A stretch of DNA of 44,926 nucleotides from Malassezia furfur (GCA_052055015.1 JBQJIT010000040.1); one strand, 5' to 3'; counted from the first letter of the stretch, positions 1,399 to 31,110 are shown. The notes: generated from the sequence alone by a model not told the origin. A program made the numbers and translations.

Positions 1399-2787
1399 AT
1401 GGACGGTGCGCCGCCTGCCGCGGAGGCTCCAGAAGCAGCATGGACGGTGCAGACAGCGCCGCTACCCATCGAGGACCCAGTCGTGGATGTGCAGCGCATG
1501 CATGTGCCATCCTTTGGACCGCGTCCGAGCTACTTGCAGTCTAGTCAGGCACAGCACTGGACGTTTAGCACCGATCAACTCGCGCAACTACGCTCGCAGG
1601 CCAACCAGCAGGCGGCCGACGCCTTGAACCAGTACGCGAGCGACGCCAAGGTACGTACATCCCTGACACAGGAATCGGTTCCAGCGCTACTGAGCGTTGT
1701 AGATGAGCTTGCCATTATTCGCTTCTATCTGCTCCGCATTGGGCGTCTCGTGCGGGCCTTCCAATTGCCGTCGCTCATTGAATCCAGCGCGATGACCCTG
1801 ATGAAGCGCTTCTACTTGCGCAACTCGTGCATGCAGTTTCACCCCAAATTGATCATGTACGTGACATGCTCACCCAGGCTCACGAGCATCTACCTCGCAT
1901 CCAAGGCGGAAAACTACCCCTTGCCCCTCGCCAAGTTCTGTGCGCAGGTCAATGAGGCAAGCGCCGGGAAACAGACACCGACGCCCTCAAAACCCTCGGC
2001 TGCACGCGGCGATGTGACAGAAAGCATCATTCGCGACCTAGAGTTCGGTATGGTACAGAGCCTGGATTTCGAGCTGGCTGTACATGGAGCGCAGCGTGCA
2101 CTCTACGGCCTAATCCTCGACTTCCAAACGCTACCAGACCCGCTCTCACGAGAGGACCTGACGGCGTTTGCAGCGGCAGTGCAGGGATATGTACAGGGTG
2201 CGCGCCTCACCGATGCCGAATTCATCTACGCGCCTCCGCACATTGCGCTGGCCGCATGCTGGATGTGTGAAACGAAAGGACAGTCGGGCAACATTTCGGG
2301 CAAAGATGTTGTCCGGAAATGGCTCACAGCCAAGCGTGAGCGCGCATCTACGGCGCGCGTCGCACAGCTTGAGGCACGCACGAATTGGCGCACCAAGAAG
2401 CACGCCTTGGAAAAGGCGCAGCAGGACGCGTCGTCCAAGCAAGCGCCATCGCCGGCGACGTCCGAGCCGGCTGCTTCATTGGACTACAGTATGGAGCACA
2501 TCAAGGAATCCGGCGGGTTTTTGTCCACCGCGGAGCTCGAGCACATCCTAGATGAGATTGCCGCACAAATCCGCGGCCTGGCGCCGGACATCCCCGCTGG
2601 TGCGCCGCTCAAGCCCCAGGTGGATATGGAGCAGGTGAAGAAAATTGACCTTGCTTTGCGTGCGTGCCTCGTGCTCTTTGAATCGGGCAACCAGTCCAGC
2701 TCGCGGAAACGCAGTGCGCAGGACGACGACGGGCGCGCCAAGCGGCAGCGCACGGACGCCCCCGTGGATAGCGACGACGAATTGTAG
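1399..2787 (+). CDS. CCL1: Cyclin H / Ccl1 (TFIIH CAK cyclin)
   Basis: [28 protein letters not shown] and [17 protein letters not shown]. Two in-frame 21-nt introns, 1651-1671 and 1857-1877; removing the second restores [17 protein letters not shown]. Confidence 0.9.
1857..1877 (+). other. 21-nt in-frame, stop-free intron (CCL1)
   Basis: GTACGTGACATGCTCACCCAG; excision removes a 7-aa insertion from the cyclin-box helix. Confidence 0.85.
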
Positions 2788-2803
2788 CTTCTCCACATCT
2801 GGC

Positions 2804-4875
2804 ATGGCCGCGTCGAGCGAGACGCGCCGCGACGCGTGCCGTCCCATTGCACGGCTCGATGCCGATGTCGTAAACCGCATTGCTGCGGGCGAGATCATTC
2901 ATCGGCCCTCCAACGCACTCAAGGAACTGCTCGAGAACAGCCTCGATGCGGAGGCAACGCAGATCAAAATTACGCTGCAGGACGGCGGGCTTAAACTGTT
3001 GCAGATCCAAGACAACGGCAAGGGTATCCCCGTGCAGGATATGCCACTTCTGTGCGAGCGATTTGCTACGTCGAAACTGCGTGCATTTGCTGACCTCGAG
3101 TCTATGACGACGTTTGGCTTCCGCGGAGAAGCGCTGGCAAGCATCAGCTTTGTCTCTGCGTCCGTCACTGCGGTGAGCAAGACGCGCGACGAGGACGTGG
3201 CCTACCAGTATGTGTCACACCTAACACAGAGCGTCGTATTTTGCCGGCACACTGCAGCCCCCCGCGGAGGGCCAAGAAGCCAGGCCGAAGCCATGTGCAG
3301 GAACCGACGGGACGACCATCACCGTGCGAGACCTCTTCTTCAACGCACCCCAGCGGCGACACGTATTTAAGTCGCCGTCTGAGGAATACAACCGTGCGCT
3401 GGATGTCGCGACCAAGTACGCCATCCACTACGGACATCGAGGGGTCGGCATTTCTGTCAAAAAAGCTGGGTCGTCTTCGTTTGATCTCAACACGCCGGGC
3501 CAGACGGGGCAGTCGACGCTCGACGTGATCCGGAACGTGCACGGTGCAACATTAGCACGCGATCTACTACATCTCCAGCCCTTGCACATGGAGTCGCTTG
3601 GGTGCACCGTTGAAGGTTGGGTTAGCAACGGGAATTGGGCGTCGAAAAAGACCACGTTCCTGTGCTTCATCAACAACCGGCTGGTGGAAAGTGCATCACT
3701 TCGTCGGTCGCTCGACACCATGTATGCCACACTGCTTCCCAAGGGGCGGCATCCATGGATCTATTTGTCACTGTCCATTGTGCCCAACCGCATCGACGTC
3801 AACGTCCATCCCACGAAGCAAGAGGTCCACTTCCTGGAGGAGGACGAAATTGTGGAACGCATCACTGCCTATACCCAAGATATTGTGTCCCAGCACAGCT
3901 CGTGTCGCGTCTTTTCCTCGGGCTCCCCAATGGGAGTCGCAACCTCGGAGAATACCGTGCAAGGTGGGTGCCGTAACTTACCCAGTGCTCGGCCCGCGGC
4001 AAAAGGGCTCAGATCCCCGGCACCTGGTGCGTGTCGACCACCACGCGCAGTCCTTGGATGCGATGATGGCCTCCGACACAGCCTCGGCGCAGCGTGGCCT
4101 GCAGGAACGCATTGCAGAGAGCCCATGCGAACTGACCAGCGTCCAGGAGCTTCGTACGGCGGTGTACCTCAAGCGTAGCGTCCCGCTCTCCGAGGTGATT
4201 CAAAACCATAAGTTTGTCGGCATTGTCGATGCACAGCAGGGGCAGTCACTCATTCAGCATGGCACGCAACTCTATCTCGTGGACCATGCCGCAGTTATTG
4301 AGGAATTTGCGTACCAGCTTGCCTTGCGTCAATTTGCGTCTTTTACGCCGATCCGTTTGGACCCTGCTCCATCGCTACGTGACCTGATCGGTGTGGGATT
4401 TGATGCGGAGGACGATCCGGCTAAGGCGGGCCTGGACCGCGGCGCCGTCGTGCAAAAGATCTACGACACTCTCCTGGCACGCGCCGAGATGCTCGAGGAG
4501 TACTTTGCGATCCGACTCAACGCAGAAGAAGGCACGGTCGAGACGATACCGGCTCTGCTGCCTCGTCACGGTACCATGGGCCTCGTGCTTGAGCGCCTGC
4601 CGTCGCTCTTTTTCCGCCTGGGGCCTCAGGTGGACTGGAGTCACGAAAAAGCATGCCTGGACGGCCTCTGCCGCGAGTTGGCCTATGCGCACGTCCCCTT
4701 CTCAGTGGGCCACACGGGCTTCGAGCAGGACGACGCGTGGACCATCCAGCATGTCTGGTTTGCCAGTTTCCTCGGGTCACGCGGCAAAATGGTGGTCTCC
4801 AAGACACTCGCCGTGCAGGCCTTTGTGCAGGTTGCCAGCCTGCCCGATCTGTACCGCGTCTTCGAACGATGTTAG
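2804..4875 (+). CDS. MLH1: DNA mismatch repair protein MutL homolog Mlh1
   Basis: [47 protein letters not shown] and C-terminal LYRVFERC. The 22-nt introns 3208-3229 and 3964-3985 join three ORF-track frames and restore [19 protein letters not shown]. Confidence 0.96.
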
Positions 4876-4892
4876 GGAAGGGTATATGTACA

Positions 4893-5514
4893 TTATTTTG
4901 TAGCGGAGCCTACGTCAAACACGCTGAGAAGCGCGAAGCACGCGTAGAACAGGCCGACAGGGTAGGCGACCAAGAACCGCTGGTTGTGCATTCCCAGGAT
5001 CGAGACGAAGATGCCGGACGCTGCAGTGCAGCACCAGAGAATGAACAAGGGCGAGATGATGTACCCAAACGTGCTGTTCAGGCGAACGAACACATTCAGG
5101 CAGCTCAGCAGGCACAGAGGCAGCAAGCAGTAGCCTAGCACGCTCGTCACGCGCGACGCATCAATGCCGCCCTCGGACATCAGATTCAAGAGAAAGTAGA
5201 TGGAGAGCACGCCCATGAGCCCCACGCCGTACACATACCCAAACTGCGACTTGCCCGCCTGCGTCAGTGCCTTCAAAACGTACCAGCAGGAGTAGCATGC
5301 CAAACACGAAGCAGAACAGCAGCGGCCCGGCGAGGTCCGTGTCGTCCATCATGTGCGCATCCTTAGGGTGGTCCGGTGAGAACTTGTGGAATGGGTTGAG
5401 CACCGCAAGTGACTTGTCCCAGACATGCGACAAGTTGATGTCGAGCTCTTCCATCAACGATGGCTCGCCGGGGAGGCCTCCCGTGCCAAACGCGCTCAGC
5501 CAGTCCATGCTCAT
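4893..5514 (-). CDS. YIP1: Yip1-domain Golgi/ER membrane protein (YIPF5/Yip1)
   Basis: GEPSLMEELDIN, DTDLAGPLLFC and SVLGYCLLP. The 25-nt intron 5259-5283 gives LLLL|AGKSQFGYVYG. Start is uncertain (5514 or 5508). Confidence 0.9.
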
Positions 5515-5624
5515 GTTGGTGTGCACCCAACCGCGCGACCACCCGCTGACTCAGCAAGGAGCCTGGCGCCGCCCAAAACTTTTTTGTTTTCCTTTTATCT
5601 GCGCCACATTCAAGCGGGGTTGCC

Positions 5625-6447: not shown

Positions 6448-7468
6448 CTACATGAATCCATTCACACTGAGCTCCATCGCAATGCGCAGCTGCTCCTCCT
6501 CTGGGAGAGACTCAAAGTTGTCCGGCAGACCCTCGAGGGTGCCCGGCTCACTCTCCTGTAGGGCATCGCTGGCCGCCGTCTCGGCGGGTACGTCCGCGAC
6601 CTCGATGGGATCTTCGGTGCCGCCTGGCGCCGGGTCATCGGTCGCGCGAAAGCGTCCAACGTTGCGCGACGCGGTTGTTTCGCTCGGTTTGCGGTACACG
6701 CGGTCCGTACGGAATGCCTGCCGGAACGCCTTGGTGAGGTTGTCCACCTTCACTTCGCCCATGCCCGGCAGCATGGCCAGTTTTTCGGGCGGCGCACGTG
6801 CCATGTCCGCAAGCGACTGGGTGAGGGGAGCCACGTACCCCGATGTGCGTCGACAAGGTCATGACATCTGTCTTGTTTACTCCACGCACGCTCGTCAGTA
6901 CGGCGGCGAGCTGGCTGCCATAGGTCTCGCCGACGCGCGTGCGAATCAGATCGGGCGGGCGCTGTTCAAACGCCTTGTAAGTCTCCAGATACCGCGCCGC
7001 CTCTTCTTGCCTGGATCAGCAAAGGCCACATACGTCCATGCCACTAGCAGCACCATGCGGTTGACCAGTGCAATTTTGGTGAGCTCCTTGATCGCTTGCT
7101 GGTGATCGCTCTTGGATCAGTCGGGACACGTACCACATCGCACAACACGAGGAGGACACGGAGGGTATACATATGTGCGAGTTTCTGGATCCGCATGTGA
7201 ATGTATTCGGGATGCAACCGAAAGTAGCGCAAACTAGGTGAGTTGTGCATCGCGCCTACCTCAAGAAGAGCACGCCGCTCGAGAGACCCACTTGGTAGTC
7301 CGGCACGATATCGGCATACTCCCATGCGACGCCCTTGATGTGCTGCAGAATTGGATTGCCCCTCTGGCAGCTGTTCACCAGGATCGAGTTGGAGGAGGCA
7401 TGCGCGCCGCGGATCAGCGGGTGCGGCCGTGCGCGCTGCGGACTTGCGTCCTCGCGTGCCTGGGCCAT
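6448..7468 (-). CDS. RAD10: DNA excision repair protein ERCC1/Rad10/Swi10
   Basis: Five exons; introns 7234-7259 (26 nt), 7111-7133 (23), 7011-7033 (23) and 6817-6838 (22). Spliced product has ILVNSCQRGNPIL, IVPDYQVG, LFLSLRYFRLHPEYI, VAWTQEEAARYLETYK and the HhH region LTSVRGVNKTD...LPGMGEVKV. Start is tentative. Confidence 0.92.
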
Positions 7469-7600: not shown

Positions 7601-9763
7601 ATGCCTGGGACACTCGCTCTAGCCGCCGCTGCGCTGGTCGGTGTGCTCACGCTGTACTTCCTCAGCGGGGTGCTTTTTGGTGGTGGCGAGTCGAAGCCGG
7701 TGGAGGAAGAGACGCGCGACGACACCAACTTCGTGGAGCGGATGGCGAGCCAAGTACGTTGCGCGCGACTCATGCAGAAAAAACGGCTCGTTGTCTTCTT
7801 TGGTTCGCAGACGGGTACAGCCGAGGAGTATGCTATCCGCCTGGCGCGCGAAGCTAAGGAGCGTTACGGTGTCGGTGTGTTGGTACTCGACATCCAGGAC
7901 GAAGAGATGGACAAGCTCGACCAACTGCCGGAAGATTCGGTTGCGATCTTCGTCATGGCGACGTACGGCGAGGGTGAACCGACGGACAATGCGGTTGAGT
8001 TTATGGAGTTCTTGCGGTCGCCGGATGTCGCCTTCAGCGAGAACTCGACGCTGAACAACGTGCACTACGTCGCGCTCGGCCTCGGCAACAAGACATACGA
8101 AATGTACAACGAGACCATCAAACAGCTCGACGAGCGCATGCACGAGCTGGGTGCACAGCGCATTGGCGAAGTTGGTCTGTGCGACGACGATGCAAGCATC
8201 GAGGAGGACTATCTTGCGTGGAAGGACCCCATGTTTGAGCAGCTCGCGAGCTACCTTAACCTCGAGGAGGGCAACACGGGCGACATGTCCGACTTTACCG
8301 TCACCGAAGCAACTGAGGTCGCAGACGCATCGCGCATCTACCATGGCGAGCACCACCCGCGTGCGCTCAGCGGCGTCAAGGGCAACCACGACGCCCGCAA
8401 CCCGTATCCTGCGAGTGTTGTGCGCACGCATGAGCTGTTTACCGAGGGCATCGCCAGCCGCTCGTGTGTGCACATGGAGTTTGATATTCAGGGCTCCGGC
8501 ATCACCTACCAACACGGTGACCACCTGGCCGTCTGGCCGGTGAACCCGGAGCCGCAGGTCGAGCGGATGCTTGCGGTGCTTGGTCTGCAGGACAAGCGCA
8601 ACACGGTGGTGCACATCAAGTCGCTCGACCCTGCGCTGGCCAAGGTGCCGTTCCCTCAGCCGACGACGTACGAGGCCATTTTCCGGTACTACCTGGACAT
8701 CAACGCGCACGCCAGCCGTCAGGCGCTCGCGAGCTTTGTACCGTTTGCGCCCAACGTCGCGGCGCGCGAGAAGCTCGAGCGTCTGAGCAAGGACCGCGAC
8801 TTTTTTCTGTCGCACGTGAGCGACTACGGCTACAAGCTCGGCGAGGTGCTTCAGATGGTCGCGGGCGACTCGACGCGCGACGAAGACATCTCGTCGTCGA
8901 CTGTGTGGCCCATTCCGTTCGACCGCGTGATCTCGTGCGTGTCGCGCCTGACACCGCGCTTCTACTCGATCTCTTCGAGCCCGAAGCTGTCGCCCGACCG
9001 CATCCACGTCACGGCGGTCGTGCTGCGCTACACGCCGTCTCAGGGTACCAAGGACGTGTACGGTCTTGCGAGCAACTTTATCAGCTCGGTCAAGATGGCG
9101 CAGAACAGCGAGACGCCCGGTCTGGAGGACCCGCGGCACGGCACGCCGCAGTACCACCTGCGCGGCCCGCGCGATGCGTACGTCGACGAGGCTGCCGGCC
9201 AGTACCGTGTGCCGATCCACGTGCGCCGCTCGACCTTCCGGCTGCCAACGAGCACCAAGATCCCGATTATCATGGTCGGCCCCGGCACGGGTGTGTCGCC
9301 TTTCCGTTCGTTTGTACAGGAGCGCGTCGCGAACGCGCTCAAGGCGAAGGTGAAGCTTGGCGCAGATGCGCTGCAAGACTGGGCGGACATTACGCTGTAC
9401 TACGGGTGCCGCCGGAGCAACGAGGACTTCCTGTACAAGGACGAGTGGCCCGAGTACGCCGAGAAGCTCGACAACAAGTTCAACCTGCGTGTTTCGCTGA
9501 GCCGTGAGGTGTTCAACCCAGACGGTTCGAAGAAGTACGTGCAGGACCTCATCTGGGAGGACCGCGAGAAGCTCGCGCACCAGATTCTCCAGCAGCGCGC
9601 CCACGTGTACATCTGCGGTGAGGGCAAAGGCATGGCGCAGGACGTGGAGCACACCCTGGCCAAGATCCTCGGTGAGGCCAAGGGCGGCGGCATTGATGTC
9701 GGCCTGGCGGAACTCAAGGTGCTCAAGGACCGGCACCGTTTGGCGCTGGATGTCTGGTCATAG
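7601..9763 (+). CDS. NCP1: NADPH-cytochrome P450 reductase
   Basis: N-terminal TM anchor, FFGSQTGTAEEYA, ATYGEGEPTDNA, RFYSISSS, MVGPGTGVSPFRSF and C-terminal DVWS. In-frame 24-nt intron 7754-7777. Confidence 0.96.
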   Translation: MPGTLALAAAALVGVLTLYFLSGVLFGGGESKPVEEETRDDTNFVERMASQVRCARLMQKKRLVVFFGSQTGTAEEYAIRLAREAKERYGVGVLVLDIQDEEMDKLDQLPEDSVAIFVMATYGEGEPTDNAVEFMEFLRSPDVAFSENSTLNNVHYVALGLGNKTYEMYNETIKQLDERMHELGAQRIGEVGLCDDDASIEEDYLAWKDPMFEQLASYLNLEEGNTGDMSDFTVTEATEVADASRIYHGEHHPRALSGVKGNHDARNPYPASVVRTHELFTEGIASRSCVHMEFDIQGSGITYQHGDHLAVWPVNPEPQVERMLAVLGLQDKRNTVVHIKSLDPALAKVPFPQPTTYEAIFRYYLDINAHASRQALASFVPFAPNVAAREKLERLSKDRDFFLSHVSDYGYKLGEVLQMVAGDSTRDEDISSSTVWPIPFDRVISCVSRLTPRFYSISSSPKLSPDRIHVTAVVLRYTPSQGTKDVYGLASNFISSVKMAQNSETPGLEDPRHGTPQYHLRGPRDAYVDEAAGQYRVPIHVRRSTFRLPTSTKIPIIMVGPGTGVSPFRSFVQERVANALKAKVKLGADALQDWADITLYYGCRRSNEDFLYKDEWPEYAEKLDNKFNLRVSLSREVFNPDGSKKYVQDLIWEDREKLAHQILQQRAHVYICGEGKGMAQDVEHTLAKILGEAKGGGIDVGLAELKVLKDRHRLALDVWS

Positions 9764-10578
9764 CTACGTAGTCGTATCCGGAGGTGGGAGCATCGCGCCG
9801 TGGTTGGCGAGCCTGCGTTAGTGGGCGCCAGCGTACCGGTCGGCCATCTCGTTGCCGTGCGTGCCGGCGTGCGCGCGCACGTACACGAGCGACGGGCGCG
9901 GCATGCGCGACGTGAGGGCGTGGTCCAGCGAGACAATCAAATCCTTGTTCTGTACGTCGCCGCCCGTGCTGGTACGCCAACCGTTGCGTTTCCACGTAGG
10001 GATCCATTGTGTGACGGCCTTCATTGCGTACTGGCTGTCGGTAAAGATGCGCAGCGGCTTGCTCGGCTCCGGGCATGTCTCGATTGCCCGCAGGATCGCC
10101 GTGAGCTCGGCGCGGTTATTGGTTTGCACGGGGCCGGCCAGGCGGCACGCCAGGTTCAGATGGTGGTAGCGCGCATCGCTCCAGTACACTCCATAGCCAG
10201 CGACCGCGCCATCACGTCCGTTGCCGCGCGACGAGCCGTCGGTGTACACGGTGAGGCCGCCGGGTGTTGCGTCCGGCAGAATGCGCACGGCCTTGGCGGG
10301 CGTGATGAGCTCATTGTCGTCGTCCTCAGCCTTCCGCTTGGGTGGTGCGGGTTTGGGTGCGGGCTTGGGGACAGACGCTACGCGCGGTGCATCCTCGCCT
10401 GCGACAAATGCGTCCGCCTCGGCGCGCGTGGGAAACGCCTTGTATCGGCTGCCGTTGTGCCGCTCGACCTGCGCCCTGCACTGTTCCCTGCGTGAGATGC
10501 GCCGACGTACCACGTTTCGTACACGCCCGGCTTGCGTCCGACGCGCACCGCGTAAAACTTCGTCTGCCGCCGGGCCAT
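9764..10578 (-). CDS. RNH1: Ribonuclease H1 (N-terminal hybrid-binding domain + RNase H domain)
   Basis: FYAVRVGRKPGVYETWEQCRAQV after the 23-nt intron 10488-10510, then VYTDGSSRGNG, QTNNRAEL and IFTDSQY. HGNEMADRLA forms after the 24-nt stop-containing intron 9813-9836. Confidence 0.93.
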
Positions 10579-18180: not shown

Positions 18181-19271
18181 TGTCCCTGGCGCGAGCGGTG
18201 CGGCCGATGCGCATGCATGCACCGATGCGTGCGGCGCTGAGCGTGCGGACGTATGCGAACAATGCCGATTCACTTCTAGAGCGTCTCACGAACGAGGCGG
18301 CGCCGGGCGAGACCGTCGAAGACAAGCGGCGTGCCAAATTTGATCAGTACAACCAGAAGCTTGCAGCCAAGGCGCAGGAGCGCGGCCTTGGCAGCGTGGA
18401 GGAGCTGGCGCAGAAGCACCGCGAGGAACTGGAAATGAAAAAGAAGCTGGAGCGTGAGGAGCTCGCGCGTGCCTACGCGGACCGTGTCGCTGCCGAGACT
18501 GCCGCGAAGCAAGGATCGGTGGAAGAGCGCGACCGCGCGCTGCAGGAGCGCCTGCGCCTGCGACGCGAGCAGGAAGAGGCGCGTAAGCTCCAGGCAGAGG
18601 GTGAGGATGCGATGGCCGGCCCCGTGAAGCCGCTGTCGTCCTTCCTCGACGTGGCTAAGATTGAAAAGGAGTCGCCGGAGAACATTACCAAGCTTTGGGC
18701 GAGCTACCACACGATGCGCGGCAAGCTTTCGGCCGTGATTCCGGCAGAGACGTATGCGCGCATGGTGGACACGGCGCGTAAGTACCCCCAGTTTGTTCTG
18801 CCGCTGCCGAAGAGCGATGCGGCGGCGGACGAGGCAGCGGACAGTGCGTTCGAGATGCAGTTCCTGCAGTGGGCGTTCCTGGCGCGCCCGCCGACGGTGT
18901 CGTCGACGACGCCCCCGCCATCTGCGGTGCTGTTTACGTCGCTGGCCGAGTACAAGCTGCGACAAGAGTTTGCACAGATGTCGCTTGTCCTCACGCACTA
19001 CACTGAGCTGATCGAGTCCAAGGGCCTGGTGTTGATGCGCGGCGATGTCACCGAGCGCCAGACCGCCGAGTCGGACGAGGTGAAGCAGGTGATGGCACAA
19101 AAGGAGGCGCAGCTACTTGCGTTGTGCGCGCAGCGCTTCTACAACGTGGACTGGAACAAGACGCTCGACGCGCAGGACGAGCTGCGCCGCGAGCTGCTGC
19201 ACAACTTCCACCACCACCCCACGCAGTTTTCGCTCGAGAAACTCCTCGAGGCATCGTTCCAGCTGGGCTAA
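18177..19271 (+). CDS. ATP11: Mitochondrial F1-ATPase assembly factor Atp11 (ATPAF1)
   Basis: Arg-rich presequence, VKPLSSFLDVAKI, ARKYPQFVLPLP, FLQW, VLFTSLAEYK, HYTELIESKGLVLMRG and QRFY. Confidence 0.9.
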   Translation: MMSLARAVRPMRMHAPMRAALSVRTYANNADSLLERLTNEAAPGETVEDKRRAKFDQYNQKLAAKAQERGLGSVEELAQKHREELEMKKKLEREELARAYADRVAAETAAKQGSVEERDRALQERLRLRREQEEARKLQAEGEDAMAGPVKPLSSFLDVAKIEKESPENITKLWASYHTMRGKLSAVIPAETYARMVDTARKYPQFVLPLPKSDAAADEAADSAFEMQFLQWAFLARPPTVSSTTPPPSAVLFTSLAEYKLRQEFAQMSLVLTHYTELIESKGLVLMRGDVTERQTAESDEVKQVMAQKEAQLLALCAQRFYNVDWNKTLDAQDELRRELLHNFHHHPTQFSLEKLLEASFQLG

Positions 19272-19287: not shown

Positions 19288-21369
19288 CTACACATAACGG
19301 GGGGACACCGCGGGCCGCTCGCCCACGGACGGATCGGGGGGAGAAAGCGTTGCGTGCAGCGAGCGCGTGACACTCATGTAGCTGCTCTTCCGTAGCAGGC
19401 GCGGCGCTTCTGTCGGTGTGCTCGTGGGATACACGCTGTCGGAGCGCGAGCGCCGGTCCATCGACAGGCGCCCATGGTGCGGCGACGTCGACGCGCGCCA
19501 GTGCGGCTGCAGCTCGCGCCCACGCCGGAAGGAGAGGCCGTGCGGCGAGGCGTAGCCGCTGCCCTGCGGCGACGCACACGCGCTACACGCCTCCAACGAG
19601 GGCGACCCCACCGCGCGCCGGAGCACGGGAGAGTGTGACACGCCTTCTTCCGCACTGCTTGCGCCCTCGTCGTCGCTCGAGCGCGGCGCAGATGACGCAG
19701 GCGTCCACTCCTGTGCGTCGTGCTCGACGTCCGGCGATTTGTGCAAGAGCAACATCTCGGCGGCAAGCGCAAGCTCGTCGGCCGTGTCAAGCCGCTCGCC
19801 GTGGGAGCCGGTATAGTGCATCGTTGGCTCGGTGAGCATCAGCGAGTGCAGCACGCTGGGCCGCCGACGCGCGCCCGGGCGCGGGGGGACGCGGCAGGTA
19901 CACACCGCGTCGGGCGTACGCGACGCCGAAGACACCGGCACGGCGTCGTCGGCGTCGGCGTCGATGCTTTCGTTGGCCCACGCTGCGCACGGGTCCATGC
20001 TGGTGTCGGCGGCTTCGGCGGCACGGTGCGACGGCGGCGCAGGGGCGGTCGCCTCCTCGTCGACGATTGCCTCCTCGTCGACCGCCTCATCGCTGCTCGT
20101 GGCGTACTCGCTGCACTCGTCCTCTTCGTCGTCCTCTTCGGAACTCGCAACCTCTTTAGGCTTGGGGCTCCGTGGGCGCGTCTGAACGAGGTGCGGCGAG
20201 CGCACCTGCAAGCGGCCTCCCTCGTCGTCGTCCGCCGCATCGCTGCTGCACTCCGTCGCTTCCGAGTCAAGCGACGAAACGCGGTGCGGTGTGTCGAACA
20301 GGTTCGTCGCCGGCGACGACATCGACGACACCATCGGCGACACGACCATGCGCCGCGTCCCGTGCGTGCGGTGCGTGCTCAGCAGCCGGTCACGCTCCTT
20401 GAGCTCAAACGGGCTCGCGGCGAACGCGAGGCTGCGTCGTCGTGGCACGGACTGCGACGCCTGCGTCGCGGCAGGGGGGGTATGGTCCGAGAACGACAGC
20501 GCACGCCGCTTGGTGATCTGTGCGAGCGATGTGGAGCCGGAAGACAGCGACGTGCGCAGCGGCGGCGAGCGGCCAATGAGGCCGGCAGGCACAGGGGGCG
20601 ATGCCTCTTCGTCGTCACTCGATGCCCGCTCGTCCGTGTCACTCGCCTCGGTATCCTCGTCTGTTTCGCCATCCTCCACGCCAACACCGTCGCTCTCTTC
20701 GTCACTCGCGTTGTCATCGCTCTCCTCGTCACCTGTCTCGACGCCCGACTCGACGTCCGACTCGCTCGCGCTCGACACGGCCGGCCCCAGCGCGTCCGGC
20801 GCATCGGGGCGCAACGCCGAGCCAAGTTGCGCCATCTGCGAGCGCAGCAGCATGCGTGGTGACGTGCTCCGCGCACGCATGTGTGGCTCCAGGAACGTCA
20901 CACTCGGACACCGCGGCTCAGGGCGATGGTACGACTTGCGTGCCTGTGGGGAGACGGGCGCCGACTTGGTGCGCGACGCGACGCTGCGTGCGCGCCGCGG
21001 CGGCTTGACCGGCTCAATAAAATGCGTGCGTGTACCCGTGGCCGGTGCGCGCGGCTCGTCGGGGATTTGCAATGCGTGTGCGTCGTCGTTGTGTTTCAAA
21101 ATGCCCGTGGTGCACGCGGCGCCACAGCCAGGCACGCATCCGGACGAACGCTTGGGTGCGTGTGTGGCGTCCTGCGGCAACAGTGGCGATCGCAGCGCGT
21201 CCGACAGCAGCGACATGCGCCGCGGGCGCATGGGTGCCGGCGCTTCCTCGGCATCGAGCGGCAGACGCGGCGGCAGCTTGCGTTTGGAAAAGTCCAGAGG
21301 CGACGCATCGGCGTCGTCACTGGGCGCCTTGCATGCCAGGCCCGGCTTCGCCTGCGAGTCGACTGCCAT
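19288..21369 (-). CDS. Uncharacterised, largely disordered Ser/Pro/acidic protein (693 aa)
   Basis: Long ATG-initiated ORF filling the space between ATP11 and PP2C, with acidic tracts and RRxS motifs. No globular domain recognised. Confidence 0.7.
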   Translation of the reverse strand: MAVDSQAKPGLACKAPSDDADASPLDFSKRKLPPRLPLDAEEAPAPMRPRRMSLLSDALRSPLLPQDATHAPKRSSGCVPGCGAACTTGILKHNDDAHALQIPDEPRAPATGTRTHFIEPVKPPRRARSVASRTKSAPVSPQARKSYHRPEPRCPSVTFLEPHMRARSTSPRMLLRSQMAQLGSALRPDAPDALGPAVSSASESDVESGVETGDEESDDNASDEESDGVGVEDGETDEDTEASDTDERASSDDEEASPPVPAGLIGRSPPLRTSLSSGSTSLAQITKRRALSFSDHTPPAATQASQSVPRRRSLAFAASPFELKERDRLLSTHRTHGTRRMVVSPMVSSMSSPATNLFDTPHRVSSLDSEATECSSDAADDDEGGRLQVRSPHLVQTRPRSPKPKEVASSEEDDEEDECSEYATSSDEAVDEEAIVDEEATAPAPPSHRAAEAADTSMDPCAAWANESIDADADDAVPVSSASRTPDAVCTCRVPPRPGARRRPSVLHSLMLTEPTMHYTGSHGERLDTADELALAAEMLLLHKSPDVEHDAQEWTPASSAPRSSDDEGASSAEEGVSHSPVLRRAVGSPSLEACSACASPQGSGYASPHGLSFRRGRELQPHWRASTSPHHGRLSMDRRSRSDSVYPTSTPTEAPRLLRKSSYMSVTRSLHATLSPPDPSVGERPAVSPRYV

Positions 21370-21558: not shown

Positions 21559-22442
21559 CTACGCTATGGACGGGGACGCGCTGCGCTGGAATCGGACAAC
21601 CATCACAGACGTGTTGTCTGTGCTGAAATTGTCCATTGCGTATTTGAGGAGCTTGTCCGCTGCGACCTGCGCGTCGGTCTCGTTCGAAATATGATCGACG
21701 GCTTCCTGGTCGCCAATAACGTCCCACAGCTGTGTCAGTAGCTCGTACATACACCATCACACGCAACAATGAGGAACGCATCGTCGTCCTCTAGAGCAAT
21801 GCTCGTGGTAAACGGTGAGCCCACCACAAACTCCTTCATCGAAAAGTCGCCAAAGGATCTCGTCACCGCCAACACACCATTCACCCGGTTGTTGAGCAGG
21901 AAGCCGCCCTTCTCAGTAATGCGCCGTGCCTCGAGCTCGTCCGAGCCCTTGTGGTCGTAGGTTAGCCGCACCGCCCTGCCATTCCGAGCGAGTACACTCC
22001 GAGCGTCGCCCACATTTGCCGTGTATAGCACGCGCCGCTCCTTGTCTCCTTCAGACTCGACACGCAGCAGCGACGTCACAGCCGTACATCCGCTCCGGAC
22101 ACCGGCCTTTTCCGAATCCACTTCGAGCTGGCGGTCGACGCGCATGTAAGTATTGTTCAGCACTTCGCGCACGTCCATTGTGGGATGCGCATGCAGTTCT
22201 TCGGCAAGGATGGGCGCAAGGTGGTCGCGACACCACTCCGCCGCAAACTTGCCCGCGTGTCCATCAAACACACCAAACAGCGCCTGGCCGGACACATGGT
22301 CAAAGTCGAGGAGACTCATATGCGCATCCTCCATGGTGCGCCGCCAGCGCGTGTTGCAATCGGTCGCGACTCCAACAGTGATCTGCCATGGGTTCGCACT
22401 GCCTGTCCCTTGCCGCTCCTGCAATGAGCTTTCGGCACGCAT
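21559..22442 (-). CDS. PTC1: Protein phosphatase 2C (Ptc1-like)
   Basis: RRTMEDAH, FGVFDGHAG, LYTANVGDAR and RVNGVLAVTRSFGD. The 23-nt intron 21730-21752 restores LIVACDG|LWDV; STDNTSVMVV follows. Confidence 0.92.
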
Positions 22443-22571: not shown

Positions 22572-23876
22572 CTAAGGACGCCGCTTGTCTCCGCGGCGCG
22601 CAGTGCGCGGCGCGTGCACGGCTGCCTGCGCCAGCTGGGTGAGTTGCAACCGACGTACGAAGTCGAGGTAGAGCTTGGACACGTGTAACGACCATTGCAC
22701 ACTTGCAATTTGTAGGCTCGGCAAGGTCCGAGGGTCGGCAGATGGAGACGGGAGGGTATCATGGTCGACCTCGGGCGTCGTCGCGCGCGCTTCAGTAGGT
22801 GGAGCATCCGGGCCTTCGGGTACTCCGTCAAATGGAGGGGGAGACACCGAATCAAAGCCCGATTCCACTTCGGACTCGAGTGAAAAGTAGCTCGCGTGCG
22901 GCAGACGCATCTCGTCCCCGGAGTCAGACCCAGCCTCATCCAGCAATGTGGGCGACGCATGCGACGCATGCGACGTATGTGCTGCGTCGGTCGCCACCGG
23001 TGCGTCCAAGGCACCAAACACCCAGCCACTGTCGCGCATCGAGCGCCACATTTGTTCGCGGTGGGTTTTGGCGAGCCTGGTCAGTTTGGCCAGGCGCTGT
23101 TCATGCATACGCATGCGGTGCCGGAACGCGTAGTTTTGCAGGTCGGTAAACTTTTCGGCGACTTTCACCGCATTTTCAAAGTGCAGCTGCGCTGTGCGGC
23201 GAACCGAGTCGGGCACGCAAGCAACGACGTTGATGGGCACATGCAAGCTGGGGCCGGGGGTATCGGGGGTATCGTGGGAGGTGGTGAATGTCCCTAGGTA
23301 CAGGGTGAGGAGCCCCAGATAGGTGTGCAGTTGCGGGTTGTGACGGTAAGGGAAGGAGGCAATGACACTGTGTGAGGCAGAGACATACCTGTTGGTCTCC
23401 TCCATGGCGTCTTGATAGCGCCCAGAGGCAATGAGCTCGCGAACCAGATGCGGCAAGACATAGGGACGCTTCGTAAGTGCATGACGTACCAGAACCGTGC
23501 GTGTGCGGGCGATGTACTGCAAGTAGCGCAGCGGTGCCAAAGACTCAGTTTCCGACATGGACGCAACCTCAAGGCCCAATTTCCACAGCTCAATTGGGCG
23601 CCATTCCGGTGCGTGCATCAGGAGCTTGAGGCACCGAGCCGCACGGCGGGTATCGCGACGCAGCAGCATGAGCTGCAAGAGGTCATACAAACGGCGCACG
23701 TGGATCCGGCGCTGATCCGCAAGCACTTTGGGGTTCACTGCGTGCGGGTCGAGTGGATTCGTGTGGGGAGTGAGGTATGATGACGCAGGGATCCCGTGCG
23801 TATACACATAGTCATCGCCATCCATATACGCCGGCGGCGGCTGGAACAGCGCCGCCTGCCTGGGGCCGCCGGCCAT
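22572..23876 (-). CDS. RRN11: Probable RNA polymerase I core-factor subunit Rrn11 (TAF1A-like)
   Basis: HVRRLYDLLQLMLLRRDTRRAARC..LWKLGLEV and FPYRHNPQLHTYLGLL resemble basidiomycete Rrn11 family sequences as I recall them. In-frame micro-introns at 23469-23489 (21 nt), 23368-23388 (21) and 22635-22658 (24). Confidence 0.65.
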   Translation of the reverse strand: MAGGPRQAALFQPPPAYMDGDDYVYTHGIPASSYLTPHTNPLDPHAVNPKVLADQRRIHVRRLYDLLQLMLLRRDTRRAARCLKLLMHAPEWRPIELWKLGLEVASMSETESLAPLRYLQYIARTRTVLVRHALTKRPYVLPHLVRELIASGRYQDAMEETNRYVSASHSVIASFPYRHNPQLHTYLGLLTLYLGTFTTSHDTPDTPGPSLHVPINVVACVPDSVRRTAQLHFENAVKVAEKFTDLQNYAFRHRMRMHEQRLAKLTRLAKTHREQMWRSMRDSGWVFGALDAPVATDAAHTSHASHASPTLLDEAGSDSGDEMRLPHASYFSLESEVESGFDSVSPPPFDGVPEGPDAPPTEARATTPEVDHDTLPSPSADPRTLPSLQIASVQWSLHVSKLYLDFVRRLQLTQLAQAAVHAPRTARRGDKRRP

Positions 23877-23991: not shown

Positions 23992-25953
23992 ATGGTGTAC
24001 GCGAATGACGCAGATGAGCGCACGCCGCTTCTGCAGTCCACGCAGACGTCATCGCGTCAGGAGCGTCGCCCCATGAGTGTCGGTGTCCGTGGGGCAGCGC
24101 CGGCCGACTACGTCGTGAGCGTGTTTGAGCCCGAGCGTGGGGGGAAGAGTCCGTATGCAAACAACCGGCCCGTGAACGATGCCGCCTTCTTCCGGATGAT
24201 GGACGAAATTGAGGCCTCGATGCAGGCCGGCATCCAGCCGCGTATGATTTCGGTTGGGACGAGCGGCTCGTACTTTGTCTACGTGAAGGACGGCGAGTCG
24301 ACGCGGATCGCCGCCGTGTTCAAGCCGATGGACGAGGAGCCGTACGGAAATCTGAAGTATGTGAAGTGCTGACGCAGTCCCAAGCGCGTGTTCCTGCGCA
24401 AGTACTTTTGGTGGGCCATGGGCCGGCCATGGTACGTGATAAGCTCACGCAGTTTGATCCCCAATTTCTCGTACCTGTCCGAGGTCGGCGCATCGTTTCT
24501 TGACAACCAGCTGCAGCTGGGCCTTGTACCGCAGACCCGCCTTGTGGCGCTGTCCAGCCCGTCGTTCCACTACCTGTACCGCGACCGGAAGCGCTACGAG
24601 CGCGGCCTGGCGCCCCTGCCGCCCAAGCTAGGGTCACTACAGCAGTTTTTGACCGATTACAAGAACGCGAGCCAGTTCCTGCACCAGAACCCCCCGCCTG
24701 GGCGCCCGCGCTCGCTGGTCGAGCGCGATCTGAGCGAGGAGCATGCGGCGCACCGGATGAGCCGGCGGAAGCAGCGCGCGCGCTTGCGCATGTGCTTCAT
24801 TGCGATCAAACGGCTGCTGTTGTGCCGCTATGGCCCCGGCCCCTACGGGAGCCCCGGACCGAGCGAGGCAGAGCAGGCGGAGCGCCCGCCGGAGCTCCAC
24901 CTCGGCGGGCAGTCGACCGCGTACCCCGCGGCGGCGCCGATGCGTGCCGGCGCGTCGCGGCGGACGTTTACGTGGAACGCACGCACCATGTCCGAGTTCC
25001 GCCTTGAGCTCGAGAAGCTCGTGGTACTCGACTTTCTCATGCGCAACACGGACCGCGGTCTGGACAACTTCATGGTGCATTACAACCCCGACGCGGGGCC
25101 AGACGAGCGGTCGGTGCGCATCGGGGCAATCGACAATTCGCTGGCGTTCCCCCACCAGCATCCGCGGGGCCTACGCGACTACCCATATGGCTGGCTCTTT
25201 CTGCCGACCAACCTGATCGGCGGCGCGTTTTCCGACGAAACGCGCGCACTCTTCCTCCCGAAGCTGAGCGACCCCGTATGGTGGGCGTCAACGATCGAGG
25301 GACTGCGCCGCATCTTCCGGCAGGACACCCACTTTCACGACCGCATCTTCCAGAACCAGATGGACGTGATGCGCGGCCAGGGCCTCATCCTCGTCGAGTG
25401 TCTCCAGCAGCACGACCAGGGGCCCATCGAGCTGTGTGCATATCCCAAACGTCTGGTACGCCAATCGGTGATGTTTTTGTCGCCACAGGAGCTCGGCAAG
25501 CACACGTTTGCGGACCTCACGCGTGGTCGCATTTCGCGTGCCGACGAGCCGGCCCAGGATACCCAGCCCGTCGCAATCCGCGCGCCGCGCCGGCCCAACG
25601 CTAGCAACGCACATGCAAGCTCGGCACCGAATGCAATCGGCACCGCATTCCCCGCCAGCAACGAGCAGCTGGCGATCGACGTCGTAGAGCGTATCAACGC
25701 GCGCGACAAGCGGGCGTCGATCGCCGCGACACGCCCTCGCCCAATTCACGCGCAGACGTCGCGCCGCGTGAACGAAAGCCCAGTGTTTTCGCGCACCTTG
25801 GACGACACCCCGCGACAGATGCGCTCGCTCGACCTGGCCGAGGGGCCAGAACCTGCCGCCTCTGCCGCCTCCGACCTGCCGCAGGTGCCCGTGCCGGTGG
25901 TGGTCGAGCGCGTTGAGCCCGAGACGCGCCGCCCGTGGCTGTGGTGGTATTAG
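23992..25953 (+). CDS. LSB6: Type II phosphatidylinositol 4-kinase Lsb6
   Basis: GTSGSYFV, VFKPMDEEPYGNL|NPK (21-nt stop-containing intron 24357-24377), GRP|CLIPNFSYLSE (21-nt intron 24432-24452), KLGSLQQF, LDFLMRNTDRGLDN and AIDNSLAFP. Confidence 0.94.
24357..24377 (+). other. 21-nt spliceosomal intron with in-frame stop (LSB6)
   Basis: GTATGTGAAGTGCTGACGCAG contains an in-frame TGA; excision gives the conserved EEPYGNLNPK. Confidence 0.9.
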
Positions 25954-27533
25954 GTGTGCGCAAGTGCACGCGCATCGACCGCGGCACGCAGCCGCTCGCC
26001 CAGCTCGTAGCCGGCCTCTTGCATTTCTTGTACTAATGCCTTCCATCGTGGATCCTCATGCACCAGGCACGTCCAGACCATTGCGGCATAGGTGCGCCGC
26101 GACGGCACACAGTCCAGCTCTTTGACGCGCTCCAGGTTGGCAAACGCCTCCTCGTAGTCCAGCTGCCGGAGGTACAGGCGCGCCATGCGCTCGTACAGCG
26201 ATGCGGTCGGCGTCAGCTTCCGCCGCGCCATGCTCTTCCACACACGGTCGGCCGCGGCGGTGTCGCCGGTGGCAATGCAGCACAGCAAAAATGCCTGGTG
26301 CGTGTCGAGGTCGGGCACAAACGCCTTGCGCCGCGTCGCAGCCTCCCACACCTGGAGCGCCACGGGCATCGATGCGCGTTCCGCCGCTGCATACAGCACC
26401 GCGTTCGCCACAACCGTCGGAAGCGGCCGCTTGTCGCGTAGCACAGTGTCGGCCGTCGACGTGAGCGCCGCATCACTCGATGCCGCATGCTCCGTGAGCG
26501 CAATAAGCGCCTTGGGGTTCGGGCCGGGGTCGTCGGGTAGCCGCATCCACCGGTGCACGACCGTCAGCGCGTCGTCGAGGCGCCCCGCACGGCAGTAGCC
26601 CTCGAGCGCAGGCGCTAGGTGATAGGACTGCAGCTTGGTGCCCTGGCACAATGGGTAAAACGCACGCTGGAGCGCCGCAATCAGCTCCGCATCGGCCGCA
26701 CGCGCAGCGCTCAGCAGCATTTGCAGGTAGAGCCCTTCGTCCATCTGCAGCGGCGATGTGCGCTTCCACGCCTCGGCGAGCACCGGTGCATAGGCGCATT
26801 GTGCCGCGATACGCAGCACCTCCATCCAGACGGCTGGGGTCTGCGTGCCGTGTGCCTGGACAAGCTCGAAAGCGAGCCGCGGCTCCTTGGCGCGGTCGAG
26901 GCACTGGAGCAGCGCAAACAGCGCCTCGTCTTCCATCGCAACACCCATTTCGCGCGCCGTGAACCACAGCGCGAGTGCCAGTTCAAGATTGTTCGTCTTG
27001 GCACAAAACTCCAACGCATGGGCGTACGCCTTGGGCGTCCAGCGCGCAAAGGCGAGCAGCGATGAGGAGGCTGGGGCGGGTGCCTCGGGGCTTCCGGCAC
27101 GGCGCAGGAGCATCTCCATCACCTGCGCATCCTCGCCGATTTTGGCGGCCTCGACGAGGTACTCGTGCGCGGTCGGCGTCAGCGGCACCGGACTGGCCTC
27201 GATGTCCTCGAGCACAAACATGGCATCGCGCGCGAGCCCGCGCTCGGCCAGCACGCTAAGCAGCAGTTCATACGTGTGGCGCTGGATCTCGTCGGCGATG
27301 GGCGACTTGGGGTGCTTCCGCACCGTCTTTTTGGTGAGCCGGCATGTCTCGATCAGGTGCTTCGCATCGCGTCGTACCGCCTCTTTAGCGAGCCGGCGCC
27401 GCACGTCATCGAACTGCGCCGCCACCAGTGAGTTGGGCTTTTTGGCTCGCGCCACGGAGGTAAGCAGTGTGCGCCGCGCCAGCCACAGCCCGGCCCGGTG
27501 TATCCCGCCGGGCATGGCGCACGGACGTTTCAT
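25950..27533 (-). CDS. Pentatricopeptide-repeat (PPR) protein, probably mitochondrial
   Basis: Basic presequence-like N-terminus and repeated ~35-aa helical units (PDLDTHQAFLLCCIATGDTAAADRVWKSMARRKLTPTASLYERMARLY; PSRRTYAAMV..EMQEAGY). Start is uncertain (27611, 27533 or 27515). Confidence 0.8.
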   Translation of the reverse strand: MKRPCAMPGGIHRAGLWLARRTLLTSVARAKKPNSLVAAQFDDVRRRLAKEAVRRDAKHLIETCRLTKKTVRKHPKSPIADEIQRHTYELLLSVLAERGLARDAMFVLEDIEASPVPLTPTAHEYLVEAAKIGEDAQVMEMLLRRAGSPEAPAPASSSLLAFARWTPKAYAHALEFCAKTNNLELALALWFTAREMGVAMEDEALFALLQCLDRAKEPRLAFELVQAHGTQTPAVWMEVLRIAAQCAYAPVLAEAWKRTSPLQMDEGLYLQMLLSAARAADAELIAALQRAFYPLCQGTKLQSYHLAPALEGYCRAGRLDDALTVVHRWMRLPDDPGPNPKALIALTEHAASSDAALTSTADTVLRDKRPLPTVVANAVLYAAAERASMPVALQVWEAATRRKAFVPDLDTHQAFLLCCIATGDTAAADRVWKSMARRKLTPTASLYERMARLYLRQLDYEEAFANLERVKELDCVPSRRTYAAMVWTCLVHEDPRWKALVQEMQEAGYELGERLRAAVDARALAHT

Positions 27534-29158: not shown

Positions 29159-29180
29159 TAAATACAGGTTAGATGAGACG

Positions 29181-30777
29181 TTAGTTTGATCGTGCGTGGA
29201 TGAGCGGTACGACTGTCCATGGGCGCGGTTCGTCTGCGGACGGTTCGGCTGACCCCAGCGCGGCTCGGTGGCATGCGTCGCAGCAGTACGTCACAATTTG
29301 TGCCATGCCATCCAGACGTACTTTCTCGCCATTTTGACTCTTAACCGCATCGCCACCGAGTACGGCTACCGTTGCGTCGCGCATCCCGCCACACACTTCA
29401 CATGGGACATCCTGCTCGCCACGCACCACGAGTTTCCGCGGTGCGTAATATTGCCTAGCGAGTGACGCCAACATCCACCGCCGCAAGAATATGGTCCGTG
29501 GATACGCATCCAACGCCATGCGAGGGAGTAAAGGTCTGGGTCAGAACGCGACGTACTGCGCCCAGTCAATCGTCCATAGGTGTTCACAGTCTCCTCCGTG
29601 CAGCAACCAGTAGGGTTGGGCGAATGCCGTCGGCGGTAATGCATCCAGTCGTGTCGTAAGAGGTCCACCGTACATGGTGCAAGAGGGAAGCCCAGAATCG
29701 GAGGTGCCTAACAGCGCCCGGACGTAGCTGTCGTCCGATTCGGGGTCGAGTCGGGCATACAACTGATTCTCAAGAAGAACGGCGACGTCGGTCTCTAGTC
29801 GGCGCCCGGTGTAGCGTGGGTATGCCGTACCTTGCCCGGCGTCATGGGGCCCTGTCCAGTGTCCTGCAAGGCCGGGTGCATCGTTATGCATGGTTCCACG
29901 CCTACCCTCGCGTTCGGGAATTTCAGCGTTCCGGCACATCATTTCGTCGACCAAATCGGCCAGGGTATGCCGCGTGGTGAGGTGTATGCGCTGGGCAAGA
30001 ATAATCTCGCCATCTATCTCATCCGTCGTCGGTGTTTCAAAAGTGCCGCTTGCGACGCCTACGCGGCTGCGCATCTTGCGCGTCAGGGCAACAGCGCGGC
30101 GAGCGTACACCGAAATCTGCAAAAGGGCGGGTGTACCATCCGTAGGCACGGGTCGTATCGGCTGCGACAGCCGCTGAGGCTGCATTAGCAAAGTGCTTAC
30201 CTTGTTCTCCATCGCGTCCTGATCCTGCACCGAGAGGATGCGCGCATACAGAGGGAGGTTGTCATACCTAGGTCAGCTTCACCACGCACTTGTCCATGCG
30301 AAAAGCCGGCGGCGCCATCTCGGCAATCATCTTACGTTGTTCAGCGCATCCTTCTGGAATATTCATATATGTTCCTGATGCATATTCCATCCAAGTGGCC
30401 GCGATAGTGGGCACCAGATCAGCGTGCGGGACCTCGCACCGTGTGGCTGCTGCTTCGCATCGCTGCTGCACCAGAAGTCTAGCACGTTCGTCGAGTTCCG
30501 TCGTATATAATGGCTGCGTGCACTCCACTGCCAGCCGCTTCTCGGCCTCTACGAGCGGAGCTGGCTCCGTCGGGACACCGAGCTCAAGCTGCGCCGTACT
30601 CATGCACGTCGTCCACGAAGGCACACAGGCCTCCACATCGCGCAGCCCGTCGCCATGAGCGACAGTGCGCTTAGCGTTCACAAAACCCGCGCGGTGATCT
30701 ATGAGTTTAGGCAGGTTGTCTGCAATTGAGTGTACATGAACGATGCAGTCGTGCAATCGGTGCGGGCCGGGTGACAT
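29181..30777 (-). CDS. SNAPC3: snRNA-activating protein complex subunit 3 (SNAP50/SNAPC3)-like
   Basis: PYWLLHGGDCEHLWTID, YPRTIF, CEVC and CCDACH zinc-finger motifs. Introns 30268-30289 (22 nt), 30180-30200 (21, in-frame) and 29536-29556 (21, in-frame TGA) join three ORFs. Confidence 0.75.
29536..29556 (-). other. 21-nt spliceosomal intron with in-frame stop (SNAPC3)
   Basis: GTACGTCGCGTTCTGACCCAG contains an in-frame TGA; excision joins the HxGxCEH segment to the C-terminal Cys motifs. Confidence 0.85.
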
Positions 30778-30802
30778 AGCATAGCATCTACGATGAACAA
30801 TG

Positions 30803-31110
30803 TTACAAGTGCACACCAACAGCGTTAAACAGAGCAACGACGCCGGTGCCCGCAAATAGGCTCGCTCCAACGGCGAGCAATGCTTTTTGCAGGGAACGCT
30901 TGCCGCGCGGGAAGCTGGGTAAGCGGACCACGTACGTCGAGAAGAAGAACGCAAGCGCAAAGGCCAGCACGAGCGAAACTAGCGCAATGGCGCGCATCGC
31001 GTGCACCGGAATCATTGGCCGCGCATCTGGAAGGGTACGAAACTCATCCTGGGGTCAGCCGCTTTCCAACGCACCTGTACCGCTTTGTACGCCGCGTAGT
31101 CCACCGTCAT
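30803..31110 (-). CDS. OST5: Oligosaccharyltransferase small subunit Ost5/TMEM258
   Basis: Spliced ~86-aa two-TM protein MTVDYAAYKAVQ|DEFRTLP..LAFALAFFFST|FPRG..ASLFAGTGVVALFNAVGVHL. Introns 31049-31074 (26 nt) and 30915-30935 (21 nt). Confidence 0.78.

Follow-up and report, generated by a model that had tools for sequence, protein, structure and literature searches.

We analysed a stretch of 44,926 nt from Malassezia furfur (GCA_052055015.1, JBQJIT010000040.1), hereafter called the window, whose protein-coding genes are interrupted by very short introns. Our subject is a group of twelve introns whose length is a multiple of three (3n) and which contain no in-frame stop codon (stop-free). The window has a G+C content of 53–71% and carries densely packed eukaryotic genes on both strands. 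Matches in Pfam and PDB identified an RNase PH-type exosome subunit, cyclin H (CCL1), MLH1, a Yip1-family protein, an NSA2-like protein, NADPH-P450 reductase (NCP1), RNase H1, a Dbf4-like protein, eIF3c, ATP5, GWT1, ATP11, a PP2C phosphatase, RRN11, a type II phosphatidylinositol (PI) 4-kinase (LSB6), a PPR protein, two MFS transporters, SNAPC3 (weak match), OST5, a DHHC palmitoyltransferase, a Rab GTPase, a U2AF35-like zinc-finger protein, ADA2, FGAM synthase, a CCCH/RING protein and a protein with a staphylococcal nuclease domain. The best named matches in three protein searches were all from Malassezia. RRN11 was 81% identical to its M. brasiliensis counterpart by BLASTP (89% in the alignment) and CCL1 was 86% identical. 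These matches place the window in the M. brasiliensis group. Protein matches of 99–100% were found only to copies called as open reading frames (ORFs) from read-archive assemblies (P0001, P0122, P0138). Scans of the window for Rfam families and tRNA genes gave no matches, and of 41 pattern matches obtained in a search for contaminant Malassezia DNA among bacterial and archaeal contigs with eIF3c, none was confirmed.

The window contains 35 coding introns, 33 in the main set of gene models plus one each in the PP2C and ADA2 genes (Table 1). An earlier reading of the sequence alone (the original prediction) had also arrived at 35 introns, 17 of them 3n and 12 stop-free, and our independent tally reproduced these counts. 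The six segments for which it had proposed positions all run from GT to AG, the three introns it had assigned to each of GWT1 and RRN11 could be located, and all six insert peptides that it had listed (VRTSLTQ, VCRRLTQ, VRHALTQ, VRHALTK, VRRLQLTQ and YVSASHS) were obtained again by translation. Each of the twelve segments is 21 or 24 nt long and lacks a stop in the frame of the upstream exon, according to the gene models of the window; the phases were taken from models that give clean conserved proteins. All twelve also begin with GT, end with AG and carry a branch-like motif (CTNAC, CTNAT or CTAAT) with its A 5 nt from the 3′ end, and the donor is GTAYGT in ten. The 21-nt pattern GTAHGY-N6-CTNAY-N-MAG occurred 12 times in the window compared with a mean of 0.01 in 100 shuffles. 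Every match lay on the sense strand of a gene, and nine of them were members of the claimed group.

Table 1. Coding introns of the window, arranged by length class (3n or not) and by the presence of an in-frame stop; the last class is the control set
Intron	Position	Strand	Length (nt)	Phase	Class and remarks
CCL1 (cyclin H) intron 1	1651–1671	+	21	0	3n, stop-free; reads VRTSLTQ
CCL1 intron 2	1857–1877	+	21	2	3n, stop-free; branch CTCAC
NCP1 (NADPH-P450 reductase) intron	7754–7777	+	24	0	3n, stop-free; reads VRCARLMQ
GWT1 intron 1	17636–17656	+	21	1	3n, stop-free
GWT1 intron 2	17809–17829	+	21	0	3n, stop-free; reads VCRRLTQ
GWT1 intron 3	17992–18012	+	21	0	3n, stop-free; reads VRHALTQ
RRN11 intron 1	23469–23489	-	21	0	3n, stop-free; reads VRHALTK, 3′ end AAG
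RRN11 intron 2	23368–23388	-	21	2	3n, stop-free; branch CTCAC
RRN11 intron 3	22635–22658	-	24	0	3n, stop-free; reads VRRLQLTQ
LSB6 (type II PI 4-kinase) intron 2	24432–24452	+	21	2	3n, stop-free; branch CTCAC
SNAPC3 intron	30180–30200	-	21	0	3n, stop-free; reads VSTLLMQ
OST5 intron 2	30915–30935	-	21	2	3n, stop-free; branch CTTAC
RRP45-like gene intron	549–572	+	24	2	3n with stop; TAA from donor GTAAGT
RNase H1 intron 2	9813–9836	-	24	2	3n with stop; TAA from branch CTAAC
ATP5 intron 1	15786–15833	+	48	0	3n with stop; TAG at 3′ splice site
LSB6 intron 1	24357–24377	+	21	2	3n with stop; TGA from branch CTGAC
SNAPC3 intron 3	29536–29556	-	21	2	3n with stop; TGA from branch CTGAC
MLH1 intron 1	3208–3229	+	22		not 3n (control)
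MLH1 intron 2	3964–3985	+	22		control
Yip1-family gene intron	5259–5283	-	25		control
Gene 6448–7468, four introns	6817–6838, 7011–7033, 7111–7133, 7234–7259	-	22, 23, 23, 26		control
RNase H1 intron 1	10488–10510	-	23		control
ATP5 introns 2–4	15898–15938, 16162–16184, 16511–16535	+	41, 23, 25		control
PP2C intron	21730–21752	-	23	0	control
SNAPC3 intron 1	30268–30289	-	22		control
OST5 intron 1	31049–31074	-	26		control
DHHC palmitoyltransferase intron	31365–31386	+	22		control
Rab GTPase introns	35476–35501, 35720–35742	+	26, 23		control
ADA2 intron	36861–36886	+	26		control; atypical branch CTGAG

Comparison with orthologues revealed, at all twelve sites, either a gap of 7–8 residues or an intron of another length. 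The gap was clean in ten cases; the other two sites, CCL1 intron 1 and OST5 intron 2, both lie in variable stretches. Some of the orthologue sequences compared are themselves unspliced ORF calls, and two Malassezia metagenome contigs (L002 and L003) were included in the comparison. Around CCL1 intron 1, the cyclin H of other Malassezia is 6–10 columns shorter across the variable stretch that bears the insert. At CCL1 intron 2, an exact gap was present in nine of 13 aligned homologues, and in the alignment with human cyclin H the seven residues remained unpaired within a conserved helix block (...IM|LT...). The OST5 intron 2 stretch is missing in four orthologues, and two others have longer, unrelated stretches that start with WV or YV, the translated donor.

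The GWT1 inserts fall within invariant blocks, and most homologues have exact 7-residue gaps in their place. For intron 1 the gap was exact in 12 homologues as well as in L002 and L003, and for intron 2 it was exact in most homologues and in L002, L003 carrying a different, frame-shifting sequence at this site. For intron 3 the gap was exact in both contigs, and several other Malassezia proteins break or shift frame there. In RRN11, exact 7-residue gaps were found for intron 1 in 11 orthologues, L002 and L003, and for intron 2 in 11 orthologues, with the gap also present in the NCBI protein P0121 of M. brasiliensis. P0121 also has RRN11 intron 3 removed, and the ORF-called orthologues run at that point into unrelated sequence starting with VR, which is the translated donor. 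PDB alignments for NCP1 and LSB6 begin just after the intron and are uninformative there, and the PDB alignment search gave no match for SNAPC3; the introns of these three genes were settled by the metagenome contigs. L002 has an exact 8-residue gap at the NCP1 intron and an exact 7-residue gap at the stop-free SNAPC3 intron. The site of LSB6 intron 2 is occupied by a 26-nt intron in L002 and by about 45 extra nt with a stop in L003, and the orthologue of LSB6 intron 1, which is 21 nt long in the window, measures 25 nt in L002 and about 50 nt in L003. As far as this comparison shows, the twelve segments are introns.

L002 (positions 1–21263, 55% G+C) is syntenic with window positions 5600–30300 and seems to lack most of the window's introns. 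In a quick junction test, 20 of 25 junctions were spanned by a single ungapped match, but this is a rough count, as the test errs near match ends and contradicts the result for GWT1 intron 2 in L003. Intron density thus seems to differ strongly within the genus, through loss in L002 or gain in the window.

The introns of the window share a rigid architecture. All 35 run from GT to AG, with a GTAYGT donor in 26 (most commonly GTACGT, in 20) and a CAG end in 30. Our script placed the branch site in 31 introns, 29 of which have the branch A at 5 nt from the 3′ end; the four introns missed by the script have a branch farther upstream or a CTGAG motif. A typical intron is thus built from a donor (6 nt, mostly GTACGT), a spacer (6–11 nt), a branch site (5 nt, CTNAC) and a fixed tail (4 nt, N+CAG). 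The only free variable is the spacer between donor hexamer and branch pentamer, which measured 6 nt in 12 introns, 7 nt in six, 8 nt in five, 9 nt in four, 10 nt in two and 11 nt in two. Adding up the elements (6+6+5+4) gives a minimum of 21 nt, and the intron lengths pile up against this putative floor: 21 nt (12 introns), 22 nt (5), 23 nt (6), 24 nt (4), 25 nt (2), 26 nt (4), 41 nt (1) and 48 nt (1), with none below 21 nt. With 12 introns, the 21-nt class is by far the largest, and none of the others has more than 6. About half of all introns are 3n, as the floor itself would be divisible by three. GWT1 intron 3 and RRN11 intron 1 are alike at 17 of 21 bases by our count; this likeness is probably due to chance, because the twelve introns of 21 nt form 66 pairs and most of their positions are set by the signals.

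The same signals determine whether a 3n intron contains a stop. A 21-nt intron with a GTACGT donor reads V-R-x-x-L-T-Q in phase 0, where the signals cannot yield a stop, and x-Y-V-x-x in phase 2, where a stop comes next only with CTGAC or CTAAC as the branch. In all five stop-bearing 3n introns the stop arises from a splice signal, namely the donor GTAAGT (one), the branch CTGAC or CTAAC (three) or the 3′ TAG (one). Eight 3n introns are in phase 2: four with CTGAC or CTAAC have a stop and four with CTCAC or CTTAC have none. Most 3n introns are therefore stop-free by default, as the signals give no stop in phases 0 and 1 and do so in phase 2 only through CTGAC or CTAAC.

We compared these counts with neutral expectation. 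The 3n share of 17/35 gave one-sided binomial probabilities against one-third of p=0.044 for an excess and p=0.98 for a deficit. Twelve of the 17 3n introns were stop-free, compared with 12.3 expected for random phase and 11.1±0.9 expected when phase and signals were kept fixed and the spacer was randomized, in agreement with the original prediction, which had seen no sign of a deficit of stop-free 3n introns in this sample. Stops were present in five of the 17 3n introns and in four of the 18 others (Fisher p=0.71). Retention would create a premature stop for 22 of the 35 introns (63%), i.e. for 17 of the 18 non-3n introns and the five stop-bearing 3n introns. The 13 introns whose retention gives no premature stop are the twelve and the last ATP5 intron, which merely lengthens the C-terminus.

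With a probability of roughly 70%, we consider these elements to be ordinary U2-type introns that have shrunk to or near the minimum of the lineage, with rigid signals, accurate splicing and little added by nonsense-mediated decay. Our comparisons show how the introns are built, that they are introns and that their counts fit neutral expectation; that decay adds little because splicing is accurate is what we infer. Under such a mechanism, intron lengths would be set by a deletion-driven collapse onto a physical minimum, and the cell would prevent errors by splicing accurately at strong signals with rigid spacing, rather than mitigate them through nonsense-mediated decay. Retained forms would then be rare and mostly non-functional by-products instead of regulated isoforms. 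Exceptionally efficient splicing was one of two options offered by the original prediction, and the sequence evidence appears compatible with it.

Several points weigh against this explanation. We infer splicing itself and its efficiency from sequence comparison, and the 21-nt floor is a presumed limit read off the length distribution. All three consensus elements were present in three of the 12 stop-free 3n introns and in eight of the 23 others (p=0.71), and a search among the 35 introns for stronger signals in the stop-free 3n class found none. With signals equal, extra error prevention of the type that passages of PMC5663052 describe for Paramecium is not visible here. Moreover, the data come from one 45-kb window with 35 coding introns, which is a small sample, and introns in untranslated regions (UTRs) or very atypical ones may have been missed.

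The absence of both a 3n deficit and an enrichment of stops, together with stop-free 3n signals that are no stronger than the others, also fits a situation in which visibility to decay does not matter. Decay could be weak, lost or uncoupled from retention, or unspliced transcripts could be held in the nucleus, so that in-frame stops bring no gain. UPF1 is present in most fungi, which argues against this possibility, and we regard it as unlikely. It is compatible with our preferred explanation of shrunken, accurately spliced introns and may form part of it.

It is also quite unlikely that the window is atypical and that the usual shortage of stop-free 3n introns exists genome-wide. The sample of only 35 introns and the marginal 3n excess (p=0.044) leave room for such an accident, but the dominance of the 21-nt class is accounted for by the rigid architecture, and the same introns are 21 nt long and stop-free in close relatives. 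A strong purge is rejected by the count itself, as five or fewer stop-bearing 3n introns would be expected with p=9×10−6 if 80% carried stops and with p=0.011 if 60% did.

The second option of the original prediction was that retention yields insertion isoforms of 7–8 residues acting as on/off switches, i.e. that stop-free 3n introns are kept, exitron-like, in a controlled share of transcripts. Retained forms would indeed escape nonsense-mediated decay and keep the frame, stop-free 3n introns occur in genes of varied function, and in Yarrowia, according to passages of PMC2911113, a 60-nt stop-free intron is partly retained, with both forms possibly functional in the authors' view. However, at these sites other Malassezia have either no insert or an intron of different length; the two LSB6 introns, both 21 nt in the window, measure 25 and 26 nt in L002 and about 50 and 45 nt in L003. 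In relatives whose proteins are 82–91% identical, differences between the inserts fall almost exclusively on residues that the spacer or the variable fourth donor base encodes (GWT1: VCRRLTQ, VRRRLTQ and VRRWLTQ; VRHALTQ, VCRTLTQ and VRRALTQ; RRN11: RYVSASH and RYAFISH; CCL1: YVTCSPR and YVACLPR), and residues encoded by the rest of the donor, the branch site and the tail are unchanged. Several inserts also break ungapped conserved blocks (GWT1 ...SL|PGY... and ...SRRx|ANL...; cyclin H ...IM|LT...), which makes a working isoform unlikely, and the agreement of the stop-free count with neutral expectation gives no hint that such introns are favoured. With peptides that are not conserved and sites in conserved protein cores, the switch idea found no support, and we think regulated retention very improbable.

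That the segments are never spliced and represent true lineage-specific protein insertions is barely credible: their frames are open and are translated by ORF-calling pipelines (P0001, P0138), but all twelve have full donor, branch and acceptor signals at fixed spacing compared with 0.01 chance patterns, the same signals flank 18 frame-shifting introns whose removal is required by conserved proteins, most insert ends coincide with the edges of orthologue gaps, and NCBI models of M. brasiliensis excise RRN11 introns 2 and 3 and CCL1 intron 2.

ORF callers do not see tiny in-frame introns, and gene predictors handle them wrongly. The original prediction had warned that database proteins of this lineage may contain false inserts, and this was borne out. 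ORF-called proteins from the read archive and ENA carry the inserts (P0001–P0003, P0122, P0123, P0138, P0139 and P0183), and similar ones occur in the NCBI/UniRef protein P0125 of M. vespertilionis, an RRN11–PP2C fusion. Relative to the spliced PP2C of the window, P0125 has in-frame inserts of 9 and 10 residues, the second exactly at the PP2C intron. Two further NCBI models are also fusions: P0004 (M. psittaci) joins GWT1 to ATP11 and P0013 (M. yamatoensis) joins ATP5 to GWT1. In M. brasiliensis, P0140 lacks 16 residues at CCL1 intron 1, nine of them conserved residues beyond the intron, and P0121 lacks 26 residues at RRN11 intron 1, of which 19 are conserved residues beyond the intron. These losses look as if a longer intron had been forced on the model. 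As a consequence of tiny in-frame introns, public Malassezia proteins thus contain false inserts of 7–10 residues, have lost residues beside introns or are fused to their neighbours. Alignments, structure predictions and drug-target studies of these skin yeasts can be led astray by such errors, an example being GWT1, an antifungal target.

Among the other introns, those of ATP5 (15786–16535) stand apart. Two of them are long (48 and 41 nt), unlike any other intron of the window, and in three of the four a branch-like CTGAC lies 7–10 nt from the 3′ end, compared with the usual 5 nt. Removal of the ADA2 intron joins a short first exon (ATG at 36805) to the ZZ-finger exon and gives a protein of 647 residues. 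Five further candidates were rejected as introns: 23077–23110 (34 nt, RRN11), whose removal results in a nonsense C-terminus; 27348–27377 (30 nt, PPR gene), where L003 shows no gap; 8420–8446 and 9535–9559, which are conserved ungapped NCP1 sequence; and 18251–18279, whose removal destroys the ATP11 frame.

Genes in the window are extremely tightly packed. The GWT1 stop codon and the first ATG of the ATP11 frame overlap by 4 nt (18177–18180), and LSB6 and the PPR gene, which converge, share 4 nt at their stop codons (25950–25953). On the minus strand, positions 19288–21369 contain an open frame of 693 residues rich in serine, aspartate and glutamate. Neither Pfam nor a tblastn search of L002 and L003 gave a match for it, even though the genes next to it are syntenic.

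Scarcity of stop-free 3n introns is widely cited as a sign that decay acts as a backup where the splicing of short introns is error-prone. According to the relevant passages of PMC5014332, PMC2911113 and PMC11441545, Paramecium, other ciliates and Yarrowia have fewer 3n introns than expected, with an enrichment of stops in them, and the few decay-invisible introns of Paramecium are described as having stronger signals and more accurate splicing in parts of Saudemont et al. 2017 (PMC5663052). Translational control of splicing of the tiny introns of Paramecium tetraurelia is the subject of Jaillon et al. 2008, as cited in passages of PMC2911113 and PMC5014332. At the level of our window, the stop-free 3n class is not depleted in the way described for these organisms. 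We give even odds to a genome-wide collapse of intron size onto a steric floor of 21 nt, which would leave about one-third of introns invisible to decay with neither a purge nor a compensating strengthening of signals. If so, Malassezia would be a fungal exception to the rule derived from Paramecium, other ciliates and Yarrowia, and a natural system for studying the accuracy of the spliceosome on 21-nt introns without the safety net of decay. The lack of such a shortage in a yeast that has roughly one intron per gene and a 21-nt mode would mean that the rule depends on the position of the floor and on the strength of the signals.

Paramecium resembles the window in having introns of about 20–30 nt, near the lower size limit, which raises the same question of visibility to decay. 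It differs in that 3n introns are depleted and stop-enriched, with 80.1% of introns predicted to be visible on retention in the data presented in PMC5663052, compared with 63% in the window. In the heterotrich ciliates Stentor and Blepharisma, passages of PMC11441545 report that intron lengths have likewise collapsed onto a single 3n mode; however, that mode is 15 nt rather than 21 nt, and the organisms are ciliates and not fungi. Yarrowia lipolytica is a fungus like Malassezia, and its donor, branch and acceptor motifs create phase-dependent stops, as parts of Mekouar et al. 2010 (PMC2911113) describe. In contrast to the window, the same source gives a 3n share of only 29.4% (under-represented), a stop in 93.7% of these introns and much longer introns overall, and the Yarrowia donor GTGAGT itself makes a stop, whereas GTACGT, the commonest donor in the window, makes none. 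The window follows the same phase logic as Yarrowia, with stops from CTGAC, CTAAC and GTAAGT in phase 2 and from TAG in phase 0.

The exitron concept implies that the retained form is a normal, conserved coding isoform. In the window, conservation tracks the splice signals and the retained sequence is not conserved coding sequence; orthologues lack the segments, so that the spliced form is the conserved protein. The twelve segments share with exitrons their location inside an open coding exon, the lack of a stop and, frequently among exitrons, a 3n length (Marquez et al. 2015, PMC4484396; PMC10985678).

Very short introns are already known for Malassezia. In the same genus, the curated annotation of M. 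sympodialis lists 5350 introns, on average 30 bp long and 99% of them supported by RNA sequencing (Zhu et al. 2017, PMC5389616), and short Malassezia introns are also pointed out in a review (PMC7426719). Neither 'retention' nor 'nonsense-mediated' is used in the main text of PMC5389616, and its intron passages are silent on a 21-nt mode, 3n lengths and stops. Our search of the open-access literature found no Malassezia paper that deals with 3n or stop-free introns, with decay or with a 21-nt mode. In Tetrahymena, passages of PMC5014332 describe a comparable class of ultra-short introns that are over-represented in 3n and depleted in stops. These were judged to be likely annotation artefacts, matching insertions in orthologue alignments. 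The window presents the reverse situation: its segments are missing in orthologues and are bounded by full splice signals.

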